Source: Spirochaetota bacterium (GTDB taxonomy: Bacteria; Spirochaetota; UBA4802; UB4802). From it: 64,000 bases of DNA. The notes below the pieces were generated by a model that saw nothing but the letters and a program-made list of their open reading frames with translations, did not search any database and was not told the origin of the DNA. Positions 7,181-56,140 of the stretch are shown one piece after another. Location: the NCBI GenBank assembly GCA_040756435.1, contig JBFLZD010000013.1, positions 2,249-66,248 on the forward strand, written 5' to 3'. Made by a program: the position numbers and the translations under genes. How positions within the stretch are numbered: position 1 is the first letter of the stretch; each line of letters begins with the position of its first letter.

Positions 7181-7834
7181 ATGCCAACCCATTTAGAACA
7201 GGAACTCAATGACTTACTGCGCAAAATACTTGAGATGGCAGACATTGCTATAGAAGCTGTTGCTGATGCTGTACAGTCACTAAAAACTATAGATGTGAAG
7301 TTAGCAGAAAAAGTGATACAAAAAGATTCAGTACTTGACCAATTGGAGATAGTTATTGATGAAGAATGTGGCAGGATTTTAGTAACCAAACAACCAGCAG
7401 CAGGTGATCTCAGGCTTATACTGGCAATCTTAAAATCAAACACTGACTTAGAGCGTATTGGTGATTTAGCAACCAACATTGCAAAAGAAACAATACGGCT
7501 TGAAGGAAAATCACTTTTAAAACCACTTATCGATATTCCCCGCATGACAGAAATTTGCATCAAGATGATAAAGTTAGCATTTCAGGCAATTACTGAAAAA
7601 AACATAGACTATGCAAAACAGTGTATAGCAACTGATAAAGAAGTGGATGAGCTCAATATGCAGATAAACCGTGAGCTATTTAGCTTTATGGTAGAAAATC
7701 CAGCAACCATTTCACCTGCATTTGGCCTTATCATGGTAGCAAAAGCATTGGAACGCATTGGCGATCATGCAACGAACATCGCTGAACGAGCCATATACTA
7801 CATAGAAGGTGAAGACATTCGTCATCAGGAGTAG
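7181..7834 (+). CDS. phoU: phosphate signalling complex protein PhoU
   Basis: Two PhoU repeats (...ERIGDLATNIAKE... and ...ERIGDHATNIAERAIY). Confidence 0.9.
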   Translation: MPTHLEQELNDLLRKILEMADIAIEAVADAVQSLKTIDVKLAEKVIQKDSVLDQLEIVIDEECGRILVTKQPAAGDLRLILAILKSNTDLERIGDLATNIAKETIRLEGKSLLKPLIDIPRMTEICIKMIKLAFQAITEKNIDYAKQCIATDKEVDELNMQINRELFSFMVENPATISPAFGLIMVAKALERIGDHATNIAERAIYYIEGEDIRHQE

Positions 7835-10259: not shown

Positions 10260-10544
10260 TTAATTACGCTTTTTAACTTCTATCAATCTTCCATTCACAT
10301 ATTTGTGAAGGACACTGGATATCATTGTTTGGTAAGGTATCCCTTCCTCCATAGCAATCTTTTGCAAAGATTCAAGGTCATTCTGTGAAATGCGTATATT
10401 AATTCTCCTGTCTTTTTTCATTGAAGCTTTTGCATAGTTTATGTGTTTCTTTTTTTCTTTTTTAATGCCACTGACTTCCTTCCATTCACCTTTTTCATAT
10501 GATGTAAGGATATCTTGTTCATATTTGTTCAATTTTTTGGTCAT
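10260..10544 (-). CDS. brnA: BrnA-like antitoxin (ribbon-helix-helix)
   Basis: 94-aa ORF with ...RINIRISQNDLESLQKIAMEEGIPYQTMISSVLHKYVNGRL, typical of BrnA/COG3514. It overlaps the upstream toxin ORF by 4 nt. Confidence 0.65.
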   Translation of the reverse strand: MTKKLNKYEQDILTSYEKGEWKEVSGIKKEKKKHINYAKASMKKDRRINIRISQNDLESLQKIAMEEGIPYQTMISSVLHKYVNGRLIEVKKRN

Positions 10545-12890: not shown

Positions 12891-12927
12891 ATTAATAATT
12901 CCTTAAAAAATTTCATAATGAATACTA

Positions 12928-12966
12928 GTGTACACCCCCGCCGCCTTCGGCGGCGGGGGTGTACAC
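12928..12966. terminator. very stable GC-rich hairpin (18-bp stem GTGTACACCCCCGCCGCC / GGCGGCGGGGGTGTACAC) between the kdgK 3' end and the pstC promoter
   Basis: Perfect inverted repeat with a 3-5 nt loop, followed on the plus strand by TATTTTATAATTT. It could terminate kdgK (minus), insulate the pst promoter, or be a solitary palindromic element. Confidence 0.4.
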
Positions 12967-13057
12967 TATTTTATAATTTGTTCAAATTTCCACATTTAGG
13001 AATAATTAATGTTGTAAAATAAAAAATATAAAGATATGTATCCTGTTATTTACACTA

Positions 13058-14086: not shown

Positions 14087-15415
14087 TTACATTGAAAAAT
14101 TAACTTTCATTATCACAGCAAAGATAAATAGTCCAATAAAAAATGTGAAAAAAAGTGCTGAGATAATAGCAGTTATGGTTAATGTTTTACCAGGCCTGTA
14201 TATATTTGGTAGATGTCTATGGCAAATATATATTCCTAAACCAATAACAAGTGGAAGAAAAACTGTATCAATGATTGCAGAAATCTGCAATAAGATTACC
14301 GGTGCAGGAAAAACAACCGCAAACAGTGCGGTAAATATAACATAAATAAAAACAAATAATCGATAATAGCGTAATTTCACATCACCATCTTTCTTGCGCT
14401 GGTACCACACTGAATTGGAAGCAACCCGGCATAATCCATCAATATTTGCAAGCAATGTGCTAAACAGTGTCCCAAATATTCCAACAAGGAAAACTATCTC
14501 ACCTGCTTTGCCAAAGCTCTCCCCTGCAATGTGTGATATCTGCAAACCCAATTGCTCTCCTTTAGGAACTATTCCTTTGGGATACAATATGACCGCTCCT
14601 GCAACCAGAAATAGTACTGTTAAAAGCGCAGTAATAATAGTATTTACGGTCAAATCTATTTGATTAATTTTTATCCATTTTTTAATCCTGTTTTTATCCT
14701 CATCGGTATCTATTGATCTATCAGCCTTTCCTCTTTTACTACCTTCTATCCATAGCGAATACCACACAACGCCAATTGCTCCTGCACCTGTCCACCCCAA
14801 AAGTGGAACAAGTTCACGTAATGTATGGAATGGAGCCCGTGGTATAAGGCCATATGCCATTGCAGCTGGATCCGGTGCTGTCTCTATCAACGCATACACC
14901 AGAAACACTATCATAATAAAAACCAGCACTCTGGATATCTTTTCCAGTGTATGATAGCTTCCTAAATAGAGTATGATTCCAACAGTTACTATCGAACATA
15001 CCGTTGCTATTTCCATAGAAATTGCTGGCATCAGCCCATACATACAGCTTCCAACTGATAATGCTATTCCTGCCATCCCCGAAACACTGGCAATAAATAC
15101 TATCCAGAAAAGAGTAATAACCCAACCTGTTTTTAATTTAAAAAGTTTGCAATCTATCTCAACCTGCGCAAAAGCAATTAAGACATTTTCACCGGTTGCA
15201 ATAGTGTAACGCCCTACCAGTTCAAAGATGGCATATTTCATAATAAGCGAAACAATTGGCGCCCACAAAAGCAAATACCCAAACAGCGCGCCAGAGCGGG
15301 TAGCAAACACAAGCTCTGACACCCCAATGGCACTTGCCGACCACACAAGCCCGGGACCAAGGACCTTTATAAGATTAAAACCGGAAGGCGGCTTTTCTAT
15401 CATACTTTCCTCCAA
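14087..15415 (-). CDS. NRAMP-fold (LeuT-fold) family transporter lacking the canonical metal-binding motifs
   Basis: TM1 region LGPGLVWSASAIGVSE...GALFGYLLLW...SLIMKY...ELVGRYTIATGENL follows the MntH/NRAMP consensus, but DPGN is replaced by SASAIGVSE. The TM6 MPH motif is also absent (GWTGAGAIGVVWYSLW). 442 aa, about 11 TM helices. Confidence 0.55.
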   Translation of the reverse strand: MEESMIEKPPSGFNLIKVLGPGLVWSASAIGVSELVFATRSGALFGYLLLWAPIVSLIMKYAIFELVGRYTIATGENVLIAFAQVEIDCKLFKLKTGWVITLFWIVFIASVSGMAGIALSVGSCMYGLMPAISMEIATVCSIVTVGIILYLGSYHTLEKISRVLVFIMIVFLVYALIETAPDPAAMAYGLIPRAPFHTLRELVPLLGWTGAGAIGVVWYSLWIEGSKRGKADRSIDTDEDKNRIKKWIKINQIDLTVNTIITALLTVLFLVAGAVILYPKGIVPKGEQLGLQISHIAGESFGKAGEIVFLVGIFGTLFSTLLANIDGLCRVASNSVWYQRKKDGDVKLRYYRLFVFIYVIFTALFAVVFPAPVILLQISAIIDTVFLPLVIGLGIYICHRHLPNIYRPGKTLTITAIISALFFTFFIGLFIFAVIMKVNFSM

Positions 15416-15448
15416 TTCAAGATAAATGAAATCATTTGACCCACATCG

Positions 15449-16156
15449 TTACAAATGCAAAACATATTCAGTGCCGTGGGGCAAAATGATCTTTTTGGCT
15501 TTTATATTCCAGTTTTGCAACTGTTCTAAAGAAAGATATTTCCCCTTTATATGATAATGTATGGGTATTACTATTTCAGGTTTCACTTTTTCAACAAAGT
15601 GTGATGCCGCCTCTAAATCCATACCATCCTTGCCTACCAGTGGATAGGTGGAGCAAGCTACCTGTATCATGGCGATAGAGACTTTGTAAGGGGTCAGAGC
15701 CTTATGTAAAAGCTCATTATACCGTGTATCGCCCGAGAAATACAGCGTAATATCCCCTTTTTGCAATATAAACCCTATTGCATCCTTTGCAAATGGATGA
15801 AATGCAGGCACTGCAATTACCCTGACACCACGGCAATCACTATGCTCTCCCGGGGTCAGAGCATGAATTTTTTTCACACCTTTCTTTTGTGCCCGTTTGA
15901 CTGCATTGATTGATCCAATAACCTCACAATCTCTTTCCTTTGCTAATCTTATTGCTCTGTCACACCAGTGATCAATATGATTATGTGAAACCAGCATATA
16001 ATGAATGGGTTCAATTTTTTCTGGATCCACAGGTAAGGGAACGGCTCGCAAGAATTCAAATGATCCCCACCAGGGATCGGTCATAAATACTATTCCATCT
16101 ATATGTATACCAACCGTTGCCTGTCCAATTAATGTGAATTTAATTTCCATAGACAC
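15449..16156 (-). CDS. MBL-fold metallo-hydrolase
   Basis: The HNHIDHW (HxHxDH) zinc-binding motif and overall beta-lactamase-fold pattern. Confidence 0.7.
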   Translation of the reverse strand: MSMEIKFTLIGQATVGIHIDGIVFMTDPWWGSFEFLRAVPLPVDPEKIEPIHYMLVSHNHIDHWCDRAIRLAKERDCEVIGSINAVKRAQKKGVKKIHALTPGEHSDCRGVRVIAVPAFHPFAKDAIGFILQKGDITLYFSGDTRYNELLHKALTPYKVSIAMIQVACSTYPLVGKDGMDLEAASHFVEKVKPEIVIPIHYHIKGKYLSLEQLQNWNIKAKKIILPHGTEYVLHL

Positions 16157-16315
16157 ACCTCATTGTGGCACAATTTTAAGGTACGATAAATCCTTTCATA
16201 TAATCGCTTGGGCTTTAAAGCAGTTTCAGCTTCATCTATAGAAAATCTATGAGTTACTATTTTGTGCAATGGTATTGCCTGTTTCATAGCCAATTCCATT
16301 ATTTTTAAAGCAACG

Positions 16316-17299
16316 TCAAATGATTGTGGCGGACATGACCATTGTTTTTACAAACCACTCATACGTATCAATGGCGCTTTCAATATCGTTTTTAGTGGGA
16401 TACCATCCCAATACTTGCTTTGCCCTGGTATTATCAAATACATAATCGCGCAGTGCTATCTCAAGGTGCTGAGGTTCAAGTGGTGATACACCAAAAAACG
16501 AAAGAATGCGTACAATACTACGTGCAACTGGCGCAGGCACTGAAAGGATCTTCTCCTTTTTTCCTGCATGGGCAAACAATGCCTTTACCATCTGGCGAAT
16601 GGTTGGGACATTATCGCTTGCAATATTTGCAACAAGCAGCCCTTTTGTTATTTTCTGTAGCGAAAGCACAATGGCTTTAGCAACATCCCGCACATCTACC
16701 ATCTGCAATCGTGTTTTTCCTCCACCGGGGAGTATAACCGGTTTACCTTCTTTTACTGCCTTCATCTGCTCAACCAGGAAAGGTTCATTTTGTCCAGGAC
16801 CATTAATTGTTGGTGGCCGTAAAATAGCAACACCATGCCCTTTCTCAGCCAATTGAATACACATTCGCTCACCTTCAACTTTATGTTCACCATACGGGCA
16901 CACGGGACGCAGCGGCACGTCCTCAGGACAGGGAACCGGTACAGCAATGCCATAAACTTCAACCGATGAGATAAATACTAATTGCCGTATTGTATGCCTT
17001 TTACATGCTTCAATGATATTTTTAGTGCCTGTTACGTTTATTGCATACATTCTATCTTCATCTTTTACAAACTGTGCAAGTGCAGCCGCACAGTGAACTA
17101 TTGCATCTGCTTTGCTACATGCCTTCATGACACATTCAGCATCAACAATATCGCCTTTTATAAACCTAAAGTTACGTTCCCCCGCTTTTGGTGCTTCTTT
17201 TATATCAATGCCAATGATAGCATAGTTTTCACGCAACAACGCATCTACAACATGCTGTCCCAAATATCCTGAACATCCTGTAACAACGACTGTTTTCAT
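16316..17299 (-). CDS. NAD-dependent epimerase/dehydratase (SDR family)
   Basis: Rossmann motif VVVTGCSGYLGQHVV with a YxxxK-type catalytic region. The start was moved to the internal ATG (MKTVVVTG), which has an AAGGG ribosome-binding site and avoids overlap with the upstream gene. Confidence 0.7.
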   Translation of the reverse strand: MKTVVVTGCSGYLGQHVVDALLRENYAIIGIDIKEAPKAGERNFRFIKGDIVDAECVMKACSKADAIVHCAAALAQFVKDEDRMYAINVTGTKNIIEACKRHTIRQLVFISSVEVYGIAVPVPCPEDVPLRPVCPYGEHKVEGERMCIQLAEKGHGVAILRPPTINGPGQNEPFLVEQMKAVKEGKPVILPGGGKTRLQMVDVRDVAKAIVLSLQKITKGLLVANIASDNVPTIRQMVKALFAHAGKKEKILSVPAPVARSIVRILSFFGVSPLEPQHLEIALRDYVFDNTRAKQVLGWYPTKNDIESAIDTYEWFVKTMVMSATII

Positions 17300-23229: not shown

Positions 23230-23488
23230 GACATAGGATTGCTTTGCTCGTAATGACTTTTTGGCTAATCCCGTCATTGCGAGGAACGCAGGCGACGAAG
23301 AAATCTGGCTTTTCGTAGCACCGGGATTGCTTCACTTCGACAAGTGGTTGCTGAGCTCGTCGAAGCACTCAGGACAGGCACTTCGTTCGCAATGACATTA
23401 TGGCAACAATGGACCGCCACGGGGCTTACGCCCCTCGCGGTGACGACGTCATACGTCATTGCGAGGCACGCAGTGCCGTGGCAATCTC
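23230..23488. repeat. palindromic repeat cluster A (REP-like family 1): degenerate copy, a 124-bp unit (23273-23396), a GC palindrome (23411-23445) and a 34-bp short unit (23455-23488)
   Basis: Units begin GTCATTGCGAGG...GAAGCAATC and end GATTGCTTC...CTCGCAATGAC, so the termini are inverted repeats, with an internal second inverted repeat. The same family occurs at four other loci in the window. Confidence 0.85.
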
Positions 23489-25149: not shown

Positions 25150-25655
25150 TTATAGTAATGCAACCCCGTCATTGCGAGGAGCGCCAGCGACGAAGCAATC
25201 TCGCCTTTCATCATACTGAGATTGCTTCGCTTCGCTCGCAATGACACTACAGCTACACCGTCATTGCGAAGCACGCAATGCCGAAGCAATCTCTCCTTTC
25301 GTGGCACCGGGATTGCTCCACTTCGACAAGTGGTTGCTGAGCTCGTCGAAGCATTCAGTGCAAGCACTTCGTTCGCAATGACATAACGCACTAGCGTCAT
25401 AGCGAGGAACGAAGTGCCGAAGCAATCTGGCCGTTTATTACCTAAAGATTGCGTTGCTCCACTCGTAAAGACACTATGGGAACAAGAGACCGCCACGGGG
25501 CTTTCGCCCCTCGCGGTGACAGCAAATCCGTCATTGCGAGGAGCGATAGCGACGAAGCAATCTCTCCTTTCGTGGCACCGGGATTGCTTCGCTTCGACAA
25601 GTGGTTGCTGAGCTCGTCGAAGCACTCAGTACAAGCGCTATGCTCGCAATCACAT
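25150..25655. repeat. palindromic repeat cluster B (family 1): 78-bp unit (25178-25255), 123-bp unit (25270-25392), composite short unit plus GC palindrome (25406-25530), 114-bp unit (25540-25653)
   Basis: Same termini as cluster A. The ORFs called across it (25086..25625 and others) translate the repeat and are judged spurious. Confidence 0.85.
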
Positions 25656-35949: not shown

Positions 35950-36232
35950 GTGGGCTCGCAGTGACGTGAGTGCAATGTCATTGCGAGCATAGTGCTTGCA
36001 CTGAGTGCTTCGACGAGCTCAGCAACCACTTGTCGAAGTGAAGCAATCTTTATGATTGAAGGCGAGATTGCCACGGCACTGCGTGCCTCGCAATGACGGA
36101 TTTGCTGTCACCGCGAGGGGCGTAAGCCCCGTGGCGGTCTCTTGTTCCCATAGTGTCTTTACGAGTGGATCAACGCAATCTTTAGGTAATAAACGGCGAG
36201 ATTGCTTCAGCACTTCGTTCCTCGCAATGACA
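35950..36232. repeat. palindromic repeat cluster C (family 1, inverted relative to A/B): 121-bp unit (35977-36097), GC palindrome, degenerate short unit (36198-36231)
   Basis: Positions 36064-36231 are the reverse complement of the cluster B composite (25406-25550) at roughly 95% identity. Confidence 0.85.
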
Positions 36233-40280: not shown

Positions 40281-40670
40281 ATGATAATCAGGGATATTTC
40301 ATATAAACTTAATGTTATTTTTAAACACAATAATGTTGTGTTTGCATATCTATTTGGTTCAATAGCCAAAAATGAAATATCGCCATCAAGTGATATTGAT
40401 ATTGCTGTGTATTTAAAAAATAGTAATTCTGAGAAGCTATTTAATACACTGCTTTCAATCCATCTTGATACCTGCAGAGCTTTGAAAACAAATAACGTTG
40501 ACATTGTCATCCTTAATACAAATTACAACCTAATGCTAATAGATGAAATAATACGAAATGGGATACTACTTTATGATGCCGATCCCCAATTTCGTGAAGA
40601 ATTTGAATGTAAAATGATTCATTCAGCAATTGATTTCAAAACCCAACGTTATTTCACAATTAAAGTATAA
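40281..40670 (+). CDS. mntA: minimal nucleotidyltransferase (MNT) antitoxin, MntA-like
   Basis: GS...DID motif (AYLFGSIAKNEISPSSDIDIAVYL), 129 aa, immediately upstream of the HEPN gene. Confidence 0.75.
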   Translation: MIIRDISYKLNVIFKHNNVVFAYLFGSIAKNEISPSSDIDIAVYLKNSNSEKLFNTLLSIHLDTCRALKTNNVDIVILNTNYNLMLIDEIIRNGILLYDADPQFREEFECKMIHSAIDFKTQRYFTIKV

Positions 40671-41092
40671 TGGAAAGAATAGTATACAAAATTGGCAAAA
40701 TTAGGGAATATCTATCAATTGTATATTCTATAAAAGACGATTGTCATAATCGTTTTACTATCGATCCTATTTACAGGGGAGCAATGCTCCATTACCTCTA
40801 TCTTTTATCAGACTCTTGTATAACTTTAGCAGAGCTTGTGATTAAATATAAAAAATTACGAATTCCTCAAACATATTATGAAGCTATAGACATACTTGGG
40901 GAAAACAATATCATAAATCCTGTATTTGCGTATTCTTTTGCCAAAATTGCAGGTTTTAGAAATTATTTAGCCCATGATTATGAACAGATAAGTCCAATTA
41001 TAATCTGCAATGAAATTTTAAACAAACTTCAAGATATTGAAAACTATCTGTCACAAATTGAAAAATCGTTAGGCATTGATTTCTATAACTAA
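40670..41092 (+). CDS. hepT: HEPN-domain toxin, HepT-like (DUF86)
   Basis: Rx4-6HxY motif RNYLAHDY, 140 aa. Its start codon overlaps the MNT stop (TAATG). Confidence 0.75.
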   Translation: MERIVYKIGKIREYLSIVYSIKDDCHNRFTIDPIYRGAMLHYLYLLSDSCITLAELVIKYKKLRIPQTYYEAIDILGENNIINPVFAYSFAKIAGFRNYLAHDYEQISPIIICNEILNKLQDIENYLSQIEKSLGIDFYN

Positions 41093-41124: not shown

Positions 41125-42327
41125 ATGAAAGCACTGCAATTTAACGTGACCGTACCACAATGGATAGCACTGAAAGCGTTAGGAGCCTTTTCAAAATCCG
41201 TGTTTTACAAAAGCCCAATTGGCACACTGAAATTAGTCGACATCCCAAAGCCAGAGCCTATCGATAAAAACTGGGCAATAGTAAAAACAACATATTGTGG
41301 ATTTTGTGGAAGCGACTATAACCTGATACAGCTTCACGATTCGCCCATGGCTTCCCCGTTTACATCGTTTCCCTGTGTTATTGGACATGAGGTATGCGGC
41401 ACCATTGAAGAGCCAGGCAACACCGGCTTTAAAAAGGGACAGCGTGTTGTTATAAACCCTATGCTTTCATGTGCTGTGCGACAATTACCGCTATGCCCTT
41501 CATGTAAAAATGGGCGACCTGCTAACTGTGAAAATTTTGCCAATGGTAGCTTTGCACCGGGTATGTTTACTGGTATTTGCAAGGATGTCAATGGCGGCTT
41601 TGCTCAGTACCTGCCAGCACACAGCTCACAGCTTTTTGCAATTCCCGGTACCATAAGCACCAAGGCAGCAGTACTAACTGAGCCATTAAGTGTGGCATTA
41701 CAGGCAATCTACGATAACATGCCACAAAATTATGATAAAGTGTGCATTATTGGCTGCGGTGTCATTGGGCTTATGCTTGTTCGCGCTCTACGTGCATTAA
41801 ACTGCAGGGCAACAATAGCAGTCATTGAACCATCCCAATTTCACCGGCAAAAAGCTCTAAGCTGGGGTGCTGATGCTGTTTTACAGGGTGATTTATTAGA
41901 GGCAGCTACATTTACCAATGGAAAAGTATATACTCCTATGTTTGGGCCAAAGATACTGCAGGGTGGATTTGATAGGGTATTTGACACAGTTGGTTCATCA
42001 AAAACATTTTCACTTGCAATGAATATTGCACGAGCTGGTGGTCACATTAGCCTGGTTGGCATAACCAGCAAGCTTTCATATGATCCAACTCCACTATGGC
42101 TTAAGCTATTAACCGTTAAAGGTGTGTATGGCTATGGTTTTATACGGGAAGGCAGAAAGCAAAAGCATATTTTTGAAAAAGCGTTAGAAATTATGAAGAA
42201 GATGCCCGATATTGAGTCAATGGTGACGCACACTTTCTCTATTGAGCAGTATAAAGAAATGATTGAGGTTAATGCCAATAAAGGAATACACAGGGCAATA
42301 AAAACTGTGGTGGAGTTTAAGAAGTGA
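41125..42327 (+). CDS. zinc-dependent medium-chain alcohol dehydrogenase (MDR) family protein
   Basis: Catalytic zinc motif GHEVCGTIEEPG, structural-zinc cysteine cluster (CAVRQLPLCPSCKNGRPANC) and Rossmann GCGVIG. Confidence 0.8.
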   Translation: MKALQFNVTVPQWIALKALGAFSKSVFYKSPIGTLKLVDIPKPEPIDKNWAIVKTTYCGFCGSDYNLIQLHDSPMASPFTSFPCVIGHEVCGTIEEPGNTGFKKGQRVVINPMLSCAVRQLPLCPSCKNGRPANCENFANGSFAPGMFTGICKDVNGGFAQYLPAHSSQLFAIPGTISTKAAVLTEPLSVALQAIYDNMPQNYDKVCIIGCGVIGLMLVRALRALNCRATIAVIEPSQFHRQKALSWGADAVLQGDLLEAATFTNGKVYTPMFGPKILQGGFDRVFDTVGSSKTFSLAMNIARAGGHISLVGITSKLSYDPTPLWLKLLTVKGVYGYGFIREGRKQKHIFEKALEIMKKMPDIESMVTHTFSIEQYKEMIEVNANKGIHRAIKTVVEFKK

Positions 42328-42341
42328 ACGTTTTTTTACTA

Positions 42342-42872
42342 TTAGGCATAATAATCGTCCTTTTCCCAGTTTATGGGATTATTGATGATGTATTTGGATA
42401 TTCTATAGAATGATTCATCATCGCGGATGATATGTTCATAATAATTGCGTTGCCATACAGGAATTCCGGGTGTGTTACGAATTATATTTATTTGTTTTGC
42501 GGTATTCATTTTTAAACGTCCAATTATTTTTGGTAACAACATTTTACGGCGTTGTAATTGTAGGGGCGATTCATGAATCGCCCCTACAGGGGTATTATCC
42601 GTCGTAACAATTGATATTATCCCATGAAAATGATTTGGCATTACCACAAATTCGTGTAATTCAATGTTATTATAATGATTGGGCAAATCATACCAACATT
42701 GTTCAACAATTTTCCCGTAATCATTTAATATCATTTTACCATCTGAAATATTTCCAAATAAAAATTCACGGTTATGCGTGCATATTGTCACAAAATATGC
42801 ACCGATCTGTGAATAATCATAACCCTTTAACCGAATAGAACGACGATTGTGGATTTTTCGATTATCTTTCAT
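42342..42872 (-). CDS. REP-associated tyrosine transposase (RAYT; IS200/IS605-like Y1 HUH transposase, COG1943)
   Basis: HUH motif VVMPNHFHGII and the C-terminal Tyr region WQRNYYEHIIRDDESF...SKYIINNP. It is a single gene with no IS-like terminal structures recognised. Confidence 0.8.
   Translation of the reverse strand: MKDNRKIHNRRSIRLKGYDYSQIGAYFVTICTHNREFLFGNISDGKMILNDYGKIVEQCWYDLPNHYNNIELHEFVVMPNHFHGIISIVTTDNTPVGAIHESPLQLQRRKMLLPKIIGRLKMNTAKQINIIRNTPGIPVWQRNYYEHIIRDDESFYRISKYIINNPINWEKDDYYA
42560..42587. repeat. perfect 12-bp-stem hairpin GTAGGGGCGATTC-ATGA-ATCGCCCCTAC inside the RAYT coding sequence
   Basis: It encodes VGAIHESPL between the HUH and Tyr motifs. It has GTAG/CTAC termini like classical REP heads. 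Confidence 0.7.
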
Positions 42873-42899
42873 ATTTTATCCTCATTCACCCCCAATCCC

Positions 42900-43163
42900 C
42901 TACATCATTACACAGTAGCAATCAACCATCACCTCATAGGCAGCAAATGAATGCTTAACAATCCATTCATTCTTTGCCATTACAAGCAATGTATCTATTG
43001 TATCAAGAACATCAAGAGCATAAAATGGCTCTTCATCTGGCAAAGAACGAAGTACGTGCATAATGTCATCCATACGTTCGCTGTCGTATAGTATCTTCCC
43101 CTTGCTATCAAACAATACCGGATAATACCGGTTTTTGCATTTAAACAGCACATACAGCGCCAT
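42900..43163 (-). CDS. hypothetical protein (87 aa)
   Basis: ORF only; no family recognised; located just upstream of the RAYT on the same strand. Confidence 0.3.
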   Translation of the reverse strand: MALYVLFKCKNRYYPVLFDSKGKILYDSERMDDIMHVLRSLPDEEPFYALDVLDTIDTLLVMAKNEWIVKHSFAAYEVMVDCYCVMM

Positions 43164-50365: not shown

Positions 50366-50625
50366 GTCATTGCGAGTGCCGCAGGCACGTGGCAATCTCA
50401 TCTTCTGCAGCATGGTGATTGCTTCACTTCGACAAGCTCAGTGCAAGCACTTCGTTTGCAATGACACATCAGCCTATCCCGTCATTGCGAATGCCGCAGG
50501 CACGTGGCAATCTCATCTTCTGCAGCATGGTGATTGCTTCACTTCGACAAGCTCAGTGCAAGCACTTCGTTTGCAATGACATTGCACTCACGTCATTGCA
50601 AGCCCCACGGTTTGTTTTAAGACGG
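50366..50625. repeat. palindromic repeat cluster D (family 1): two near-identical tandem 100-bp units (50366-50465, 50481-50580) plus a partial unit
   Basis: GTCATTGCGA(G/A)TGCCGCAGGCACGTGGCAATCTC...GATTGCTTCACTTCGACAAGCTCAGTGCAAGCACTTCGTTTGCAATGAC, repeated twice. Confidence 0.85.
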
Positions 50626-51719: not shown

Positions 51720-52170
51720 GACTTTTGCCCTCCTGTCATTGCCAGGAACGAAGTGACGAAGCAATCTTGTCTTCTGCTGTATTGAGATTGCTTCACCCCG
51801 ACTTCGTCAGGGTTCGCAATGACCTTCATACTTCATCATTGCGAGGAACGAAGTGATGAAGTAATCCCTCTTTTCATCGTTATAGGATTGCCCCCCTCGA
51901 CAAGCTCAGAACAAGCCTTACGTTCCCCACGACTTTTGCCCTCCTGTCATTGCCAGGAACGAAGTGACGAAGCAATCTTGTCTTCTGCTGTATTGAGATT
52001 GCTTCACCCCGACTTCGTCAGGGTTCGCAATGACCTTCATACTTCGTCATTGCGAGGAGCAAAGCAACGAAGCAATCTCTCCTTCCGTGTCACTGAGATT
52101 GCCTTCCTTCGACAAGCGGTTACTAAGCTTGTCGAAGCACTCAGGACAAGGGCTGCACTTGCAATGATAA
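51720..52170. repeat. palindromic repeat cluster E (family 1 variants): 89-bp units at 51735-51823 and 51946-52034 inside a roughly 211-bp tandem duplication, a degenerate unit (51834-51933), and a 123-bp unit (52045-52167)
   Basis: GTCATTGCCAGGAACGAAGTGACGAAGCAATC...GAGATTGCTTCACCCCGACTTCGTCAGGGTTCGCAATGAC is duplicated with its flanks. The ORF 51819..52193 is repeat-derived. Confidence 0.85.
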
Positions 52171-56039: not shown

Positions 56040-56140
56040 ATTCTACACTATACTGTAATTACGTTACTGGGGATGGGGTCCCCCGTTAAACGCCTTCCGG
56101 CTGATGGCTCCTACTGCATGGCAGTAGGTTTTTTATTTTT
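56040..56140 (+). promoter_or_regulatory. candidate structured 5' leader / transcription attenuator upstream of the cation:proton antiporter gene
   Basis: GC-rich paired elements (GGGGATGGGGTCCCCCG...) that end in an intrinsic terminator hairpin CCTACTGC-atg-GCAGTAGG plus TTTTTTATTTTT (56110-56140), 42 nt before the antiporter ATG. A possible promoter (TTCTTA-N18-TACAAT) lies around 56005-56035. Confidence 0.4.

Follow-up and report, generated by a model that had tools for sequence, protein, structure and literature searches.

The RAYT gene analysed here is best placed against two described systems, TnpA_REP of E. coli and TnpA_Y1 subclass 2.4. E. coli TnpA_REP (subclass 2.2, Group 2; structure 4ER8, in which it is bound to a REP hairpin) acts on a hairpin with a GTAG foot. 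Any change in GTAG abolishes binding and cleavage, and the enzyme needs a bulged stem, its binding being lost on a perfect palindrome (PMC3479197). The REP stem is contacted by K82, which lies on the DNA-binding helix alpha3 (PMC8266576; PMC3479197), and the residues that bind the GTAG tetranucleotide have been listed (PMC6006769). TnpA_Y1 subclass 2.4 was defined by Quentin, Siguier, Chandler and Fichant in 2018 and corresponds to RAYT Group 4 of Bertels et al. 2017 (PMC6006769). Its motifs are NH[IFV]H for HuH, a WQ pair and YIxNNP for the Y motif (PMC6006769, Table 1). Between beta3 and alphaC, members carry an insertion that varies both in length and in sequence, and their REPs have a 'double foot', 5' GT[AG]G and 3' C[TC]AC (PMC6006769). 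[quoted passage not shown] 2018 view the internal REP as a passive, tolerated in-frame insertion (PMC6006769). Group 4 is common in Cyanobacteria, Chlorobia and Caldilineae, and 16-mers flanking Group 4 genes occur about 14 times per replicon (Bertels et al. 2017). In the cited literature we found biochemical activity for E. coli and Group 3 enzymes only and none for Group 4. A GTAG-tagged REP superfamily that includes intragenic REPs was described by Di Nocera et al. 2013, who also reported CGTC-tagged REPs in Spirochaetes without associated tyrosine transposase genes.

The window, by which we mean the whole 64 kb stretch of DNA that was analysed, contains one intact RAYT gene on the minus strand, as given by its ORF list (Table 1). 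The original prediction had assigned this ORF to the RAYTs from an HUH motif (MPNHFHGII) and a tyrosine motif (WQRNYYEHIIR...SKYIINNP), both of which are present, and the assignment holds: HUH and Tyr align to E. coli TnpA_REP, so that the catalytic residues, whose loss had been named as a possible refutation, are in place. In the translation, NHFH occupies residues 80–83. The best Foldseek match of the AlphaFold model is 4er8_A (E 5.7e-07, TM 0.57/0.60), followed by the ISDra2, IS608 and IS200 transposases. This structural likeness to solved Y1 transposases, together with HUH and Tyr, identifies a HUH/Y1 single-strand transposase fold. Alignment to 4ER8 by phmmer equates W140, Q141, E146, H147 and R150 with W94, Q95, E100, H101 and R104 of E. 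coli TnpA_REP; the set of five GTAG-binding residues known from the E. coli enzyme is thus complete. The NCBIfam model REP_Tyr_transpos (NF047646) matches with 67.9 bits (E 8.5e-19), below its curated equivalog cutoff of 80, and Pfam Y1_Tnp matches weakly, with 22.5 against a cutoff of 23. Both scores likely stay below the cutoffs because the internal loop splits the match. As had been claimed, the gene is single copy, here within the window: tblastn of the protein against the 64 kb finds no second one. Fold and motifs agree, and the window gene is an intact RAYT.

Table 1. Coordinates and arrangement of features in the window and in homologous loci. Positions in loci with an L number refer to that locus; a slash within a sequence marks the centre of a palindrome.
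Feature	Position	Strand	Remarks
RAYT / TnpA_REP gene, 176 aa	42342..42872	-	TnpA_Y1 subclass 2.4 = RAYT Group 4
HUH motif NHFH, H81 and H83	42624..42635	-	aligns with PEHMH of 4ER8
In-frame 'double-foot' REP, perfect 30-nt palindrome	42559..42588	.	T-GTAG-GGGCGATTCA/TGAATCGCCC-CTAC-A, encodes VGAIHESPLQ
Helix alphaC (alpha3), residues 112-132	42477..42539	-	directly 3' of the REP-coded loop
WQRNYYEHIIR, W140/Q141/E146/H147/R150	42423..42455	-	phmmer alignment to 4er8_A
Catalytic Tyr motif YIINNP (within SKYIINNP)	42375..42392	-	Y161 = Y115 of 4ER8
GTAGGGG heptamer	42897..42903	-	25 nt upstream of RAYT start; overlaps stop codon of 87-aa ORF
MNT, Polbeta/NTP_transf_2	40281-40670		family match
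HepT-like HEPN	40670-41092		family match
Zinc ADH-type dehydrogenase	41125-42327		opposite strand to RAYT
87-aa ORF	42900-43163		no family match
Tandem arrays of MITE-like units	23247-23466, 25168-25653, 35954-36231, 50366-50602, 51735-52057		units of ~100-125 nt
REP arrangement, L019			REP either side of RAYT gene, none inside
REP arrangement, L094			REPs upstream, inside and downstream of RAYT
REP arrangement, L023, L092, L111			internal REP only
REP arrangement, L029			GGGGCRATTCATGAATYGCCCC-type REP 260 bp downstream; different REP type inside gene
Internal palindrome, L001			GTAGGGGCAATTCATGAATTGCCCCTAC
Internal palindrome, L124			43-nt perfect, another type, GTAGGGGTGGGTTTTAAACCCACCCCTAC
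Internal palindrome, L002			GTAGGGGCGGGTTTGAAACCCGCCCCTAC
Internal palindrome, L029			GTAGGGGCGTATTGCAATACGCCCCTAC, other frame, RGVLQYAPT
Internal palindrome, L127 (Brevinematia MAG)	10280-10337		58-nt nested, GTTG instead of GTAG feet, GTTGGGGCTTAC-GTTGGGGCAATTCA/TGAATTGCCCCAAC-GTAAGCCCCAAC
Type B enzyme			LPEIVRALKTFSARRIN; REP = GGGGCGGGTTTGAAACCCGCCCC

All four sequence signatures of subclass 2.4 are found in the window gene: NHFH, the WQ pair, YIINNP and a variable beta3-alphaC insertion. Only 10 residues follow YIINNP (Y161–P166), and 15 follow Y161, so that the protein has no conserved C-terminal extension past the core; the final helix of the AlphaFold model spans residues 152–173. 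A REP with the GT[AG]G foot of the subclass is present as the in-frame copy, without a flanking one. We conclude from these sequence characters that the gene is an ordinary member of TnpA_Y1 subclass 2.4, with no difference in kind. It shares with that group the HuH/WQ/YIxNNP motifs, the beta3-alphaC insertion, the lack of a C-terminal extension domain, the in-frame GTAG/CTAC double-foot REP and the patchy distribution across phyla, and it stands out by its host, a Spirochaetota MAG, and by its lone REP copy in 64 kb. With E. coli TnpA_REP it has in common the HUH/Y1 fold, the GTAG-binding residues, the catalytic Tyr and the GTAG foot on the hairpin. In contrast to the window gene, that of E. 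coli has BIMEs on its flanks, REPs with a bulged, imperfect stem and a single foot, and a product with a regulatory C-terminal tail; the window REP is a perfect two-foot palindrome within the gene, and protein identity is about 16%. As in the GTAG-tagged REP superfamily (Di Nocera et al. 2013), a GC-rich palindrome bears GTAG at its foot and in-frame insertions into coding regions are tolerated, with the differences that the host gene here is the transposase itself and that the tag stands at both ends.

The in-gene palindrome was overlooked in the original prediction, which had treated the RAYT as an orphan and left open which of two repeat families found elsewhere in the window, if either, it mobilises. 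That framing finds no support, since the gene carries its own in-frame GTAG REP. The full 30-nt palindrome reads TGTAGGGGCGATTCA/TGAATCGCCCCTACA, with GTAG at its start and CTAC at its end; its 22-nt core is GGGGCRATTCATGAATYGCCCC. It is one of just two perfect hairpins with a stem of at least 15 bp in the 64 kb, and as single-stranded DNA it folds with -15.6 kcal/mol (z = -4.9 against shuffles). In the AlphaFold model it falls between the HUH strand (beta3) and the next helix (alphaC), in a disordered loop: residues 81–88 form a strand, 89–111 are disordered and 112–132 form a helix, with pLDDT below 50 at 96–108. One of the three reading frames of the palindrome is open, while the other two contain TAG and TGA. 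The internal REP is tolerated because this single frame is open and the encoded peptide lies in a surface loop. Further copies or half-copies were absent from the 64 kb at up to 3 mismatches, and an Rfam search of the repeats and of the palindrome gave no match. The constant frame VGAIHE[SL]PL might be taken as proof of one ancestral insertion, an argument that we considered and rejected. With two frames closed by stops, no other frame could persist, and REP types free of such stops do occur in two frames, as VGARHAVPL and RGTACRAPT, with RGVLQYAPT in L029.

The gene flanks contain no palindrome of the internal-REP type or of any GTAG type. The classical REPtron arrangement, with REP copies on both sides, is thus not found at the window gene, and no flanking REP lies within 1 kb. 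Flanking REPs are absent because in subclass 2.4 the REP often lies inside the gene, and the lack of an extra copy in 64 kb is unremarkable given the roughly 14 Group 4 16-mers per replicon. The GTAGGGG heptamer upstream of the gene is possibly a decayed upstream REP, a reading without statistical support: this heptamer is found 4 times in the window where 2.8 are expected, which is chance level, and it therefore cannot be called a REP relic. The same upstream position holds an intact REP in the homologues L019, L094 and L125. The neighbours were correctly anticipated as an MNT/HEPN pair, a dehydrogenase and a small ORF (Table 1). PADLOC returned no match for the RAYT or for the 87-aa ORF, and searches against plasmid and phage proteins gave just 5 and 1 distant matches, respectively, and therefore no evidence that the gene rides on a plasmid or phage.

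Toxin-antitoxin or defence genes repeatedly adjoin subclass 2.4 RAYT genes. Besides the MNT/HepT pair of the window (40281-41092), they comprise RelB/YafQ and a DNA methyltransferase in L123 (5202-5731) and type I R-M, SduA_C and TIR_2 genes in L002 (3368-9832). In Thermoflavifilum thermophilum (L001, 9448-11200), two intact tandem RAYTs and a third degenerate copy separate hsdM from hsdS in a type I restriction-modification operon. The RAYT of L124, L125, L002 and L123 is followed by a gene without known function, the start of which overlaps the RAYT stop. Two further elements of the window were recorded. One is a fluoride riboswitch (crcB motif, RF01734) at 56060-56120 on the plus strand, with 53.6 bits against a gathering score of 34. 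The other is an intergenic 43-nt perfect GC-rich hairpin at 12926-12968 (stem 20, loop 3, TAGTGTACACCCCCGCCGCCTTCGGCGGCGGGGGTGTACACTA), which lies between two minus-strand ORFs, lacks a GTAG foot, is followed by a T-rich run and appears terminator-like.

A protein identical to the window RAYT (100%) is present in the database, annotated as 'transposase [Spirochaetota bacterium]'. In the protein search 8,000 candidate relatives were scored, and the full scan contains 29,013 cluster representatives at E <=1e-3. The best 120 homologues are 171–285 aa long, and their length variation lies entirely at the palindrome site. A VGAIHE[LS]P-type peptide is present at this same site in 113 of these 120, and many of them show tandem half-repeats such as HELPLHELPLHESPI or VGAIHVGAIH. 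The closest full-length relative, L123 (70% identity), carries the same palindrome with one mismatch and without a flanking copy, and its RAYT adjoins the RelB/YafQ toxin-antitoxin pair. Other homologues carry palindromes of other sequence inside the gene (Table 1). In addition to its internal palindrome, L127 has a 48-nt perfect relative at 7582-7629, 2.4 kb upstream; left-arm duplications are mirrored on the right arm. A group of near-identical RAYTs, formed by L125 (226-1014) and proteins P0011, P0018, P0021, P0031, P0041 and P0057, differs just in the count of 15-nt half-REP units (IHELP / VGAIH) and in the flanking DNV/SVD microsatellites; the linker therefore behaves as a hypervariable tandem-repeat tract. 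In L002 we observed a classical REPtron (14179-16454), a 155-aa Y1 gene (15951-16418) flanked by copies of GTAGAGCCGCCCAAATTGGGCGGCTCTAC, a double-foot REP, which lies 5 kb from a subclass 2.4 RAYT with a different internal REP.

The distribution of the palindrome was followed by an exact-match scan for GGGGCRATTCATGAATYGCCCC with one genome per species. This 22-nt core occurs at no fewer than 123 sites in at least 120 genome stretches, which belong to about 20 major lineages of bacteria. Among the matches listed, the hosts are Cyanobacteria, Chloroflexota, Desulfobacterota, Nitrospirota, Planctomycetota, Omnitrophota, Acidobacteriota, Bacteroidota, Firmicutes, Spirochaetota, Patescibacteria and others; both the GTAG and the CTAC foot are present at 94 of 123 sites; a RAYT homologue is found in six loci (L019, L023, L029, L092, L094 and L111); and many sites lie far from any RAYT. 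The two Spirochaetota REP loci L066 and L089 have no sequence in common with the window. Extragenic double-foot REPs often form the centre of longer perfect palindromes with copy-specific outer arms (L019 1826-1880, L094 5450-5494, L060, L039, L018 and others). Complementarity beyond the feet occurs at 52 of the 123 sites among the matches listed and reaches up to 22 nt from the 22-nt core, which suggests that the REPs either inserted into hairpins already present or were copied in a way that mirrors the flanking DNA.

Conservation of the in-gene copy is seen at the level of DNA. In five homologue pairs, third-codon positions within the REP match at 7–9 of 8–9 sites, compared to 38–62% elsewhere in the gene. 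Where some homologues have CG...CG, others have CA...TG, a compensatory difference that exchanges Ser for Leu. Judged from this sequence comparison, the conserved entity is the DNA palindrome and not the peptide.

Helix alphaC, which is the probable REP-stem recognition helix of the window RAYT, varies together with the REP. In four close homologues whose REP is of the KP[AT]PT type, identity to the window protein is 71% in the N-terminal part and 80% in the C-terminal part, and only 36% in alphaC; alphaC identity is 79.5% for the 113 same-type homologues. In a set of 136 diverse representatives, the types of the REP-coded peptide and of alphaC show a near one-to-one pairing (24/24, 21/21, 9/9, 8/8, 6/6 and 3/3), as classified with regular expressions that were written after the data were seen, and the association may in part reflect shared ancestry. 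The two tandem paralogues of Thermoflavifilum (L001) agree almost completely at their ends (46/47 and 52/53 residues) and differ in their REP+alphaC cassettes, a pattern that looks like a cassette swap or a homogenisation of the ends. Synonymous-site conservation of the REP, the pairing of REP type and alphaC together with the exchange of this cassette, and the occurrence of an identical core in different phyla were not found stated in the cited RAYT/REP literature.

Based on the intact GTAG-binding residues, the dispersal of the palindrome, its conservation at the DNA level and its pairing with alphaC, the cognate substrate is likely the GTAG REP and not the (C)GTCA repeat families of the window. 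We therefore favour, with good though not full confidence, an intact subclass 2.4 HUH/Y1 nuclease-transferase whose cognate element is its own in-frame GTAG double-foot REP and to which families 1 and 2 are unrelated. By analogy to E. coli TnpA_REP and to the Group 3 biochemistry, the protein would bind the REP hairpin on single-stranded DNA. W140, Q141, E146, H147 and R150 would read the GTAG foot, Y161 and the HUH-bound metal would cleave and rejoin the DNA, and REPs of the internal sequence type could thereby be mobilised or rearranged. That the enzyme is catalytically active, that it recognises its substrate through GTAG and that it now mobilises anything in this genome is what we infer. 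Because the E. coli enzyme does not accept perfect palindromes, the window RAYT would have to recognise its REP in a somewhat different way. Other findings also speak against the favoured explanation. With neither a second REP copy nor a half-copy in the 64 kb, there is no local sign of dispersal; the NF047646 and Y1_Tnp scores remain below their cutoffs; and in L029 the REP type inside the gene differs from that of the REP 260 bp downstream.

The same lack of other REP copies in 64 kb would be expected if the gene were a domesticated or idle remnant, in which the internal REP is a passive, tolerated insert and the enzyme mobilises nothing at present. The REP-coded peptide is disordered and peripheral in the model, the 16-mers flanking Group 4 genes number only about 14 per replicon (Bertels 2017), and the context beside a toxin-antitoxin pair is accessory, all of which agrees with an idle gene. 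We regard this as less likely than the favoured explanation, although it retains considerable weight. The catalytic and GTAG-binding residues are all intact, the REP type co-varies with the recognition helix, and a perfect 30-nt palindrome whose synonymous sites are conserved far above the rest of the gene is unlike a decaying passive insert.

That conservation beyond coding need, the strength of the hairpin (-15.6 kcal/mol, z = -4.9) and the near-universal presence in the subclass of different sequences at the same site could also point to a function in cis. Here the internal palindrome would mainly serve as an RNA or DNA hairpin that controls RAYT expression, for example by stalling translation, by serving as an RNase target or by letting the protein bind and repress its own gene. 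We consider this improbable, because the same palindrome occurs at many sites far from RAYTs and is hence not solely a cis-regulator, and some homologues lack an internal REP and have flanking copies instead (L019).

Whether this RAYT mobilises the repeat families of the window was the question posed in the original prediction, which had correctly described palindromes as abundant elsewhere and missing from the gene flanks. Repeats of the GTCATTGCGAG type (family 1) give 24 matches in the window against 0.75 expected by chance, and the common head of families 1 and 2, GTCAYYGCGAGG, occurs 19 times against 0.2 expected. The GTCATTGCGAG-type repeats cluster at five intergenic sites in tandem arrays of units with the ends (C)GTCATTGCGAGG...CTCGCAATGAC(G), and the GTCACCGCGAGG-headed variant (family 2) is built around a GGGGC-TTAC-GCCCC hairpin. 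This enrichment, 19–24 matches where fewer than one is expected, and the fact that no other candidate transposase for the two families was identified favour a link to the RAYT. Nevertheless, we judge it very unlikely that the enzyme mobilises GTCATTGCGAG-type or GTCACCGCGAGG-type elements. The comparison of 5' tetranucleotides that had been proposed gives 'neither' as the best answer: both begin with (C)GTCAYYGCGAGG, a (C)GTCA head without GTAG, while the RAYT keeps its GTAG-binding residues. The nearest copies are 6.1 kb and 7.5 kb away from the gene, and neither family has a match in any of the 128 loci with RAYT homologues or with the REP of these. The CGTC-AT head fits the CGTC-tagged repeats without tyrosine transposase association (Di Nocera et al. 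2013), although these have stems of 8–9 bp and loops of 4–5 nt, in contrast to units of ~100-125 nt in families 1 and 2. Families 1 and 2 probably represent a repeat system unrelated to this RAYT.

A canonical IS200/IS605 TnpA (subclass 1.1) of an insertion sequence, with which the gene shares its fold (as in the IS608 and ISDra2 transposases), the single-strand HUH/Y1 chemistry and a weak Pfam Y1_Tnp match, can for practical purposes be dismissed, although the original prediction had named it as a possible refutation, since the Y motif is YIINNP (class 2) and not Y---Q (subclass 1.1), no tnpB partner is adjacent, the flanks contain neither IS ends nor subterminal hairpins, and the gene is single copy in the 64 kb where an IS would show multicopy identity.

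For the intact nuclease-transferase that we favour, the finding means that the substrate type of a RAYT can be read from its own coding sequence and that this RAYT is not an orphan. The pairing of REP type with alphaC suggests a simple specificity code. A further idea, which we put forward as speculative and rather unlikely as it stands, is that the REP within the gene serves as a 'master copy' under selection, fused to the alphaC that reads it, and that both are inherited, exchanged (as in the L001 paralogues) and transferred between phyla as a unit. If true, the master copy would explain the identical 22-nt core in about 20 lineages as well as the frozen synonymous sites. Group 4 comprises the least studied REP transposases, and the in-gene REP gives a ready enzyme-substrate pair for biochemistry.
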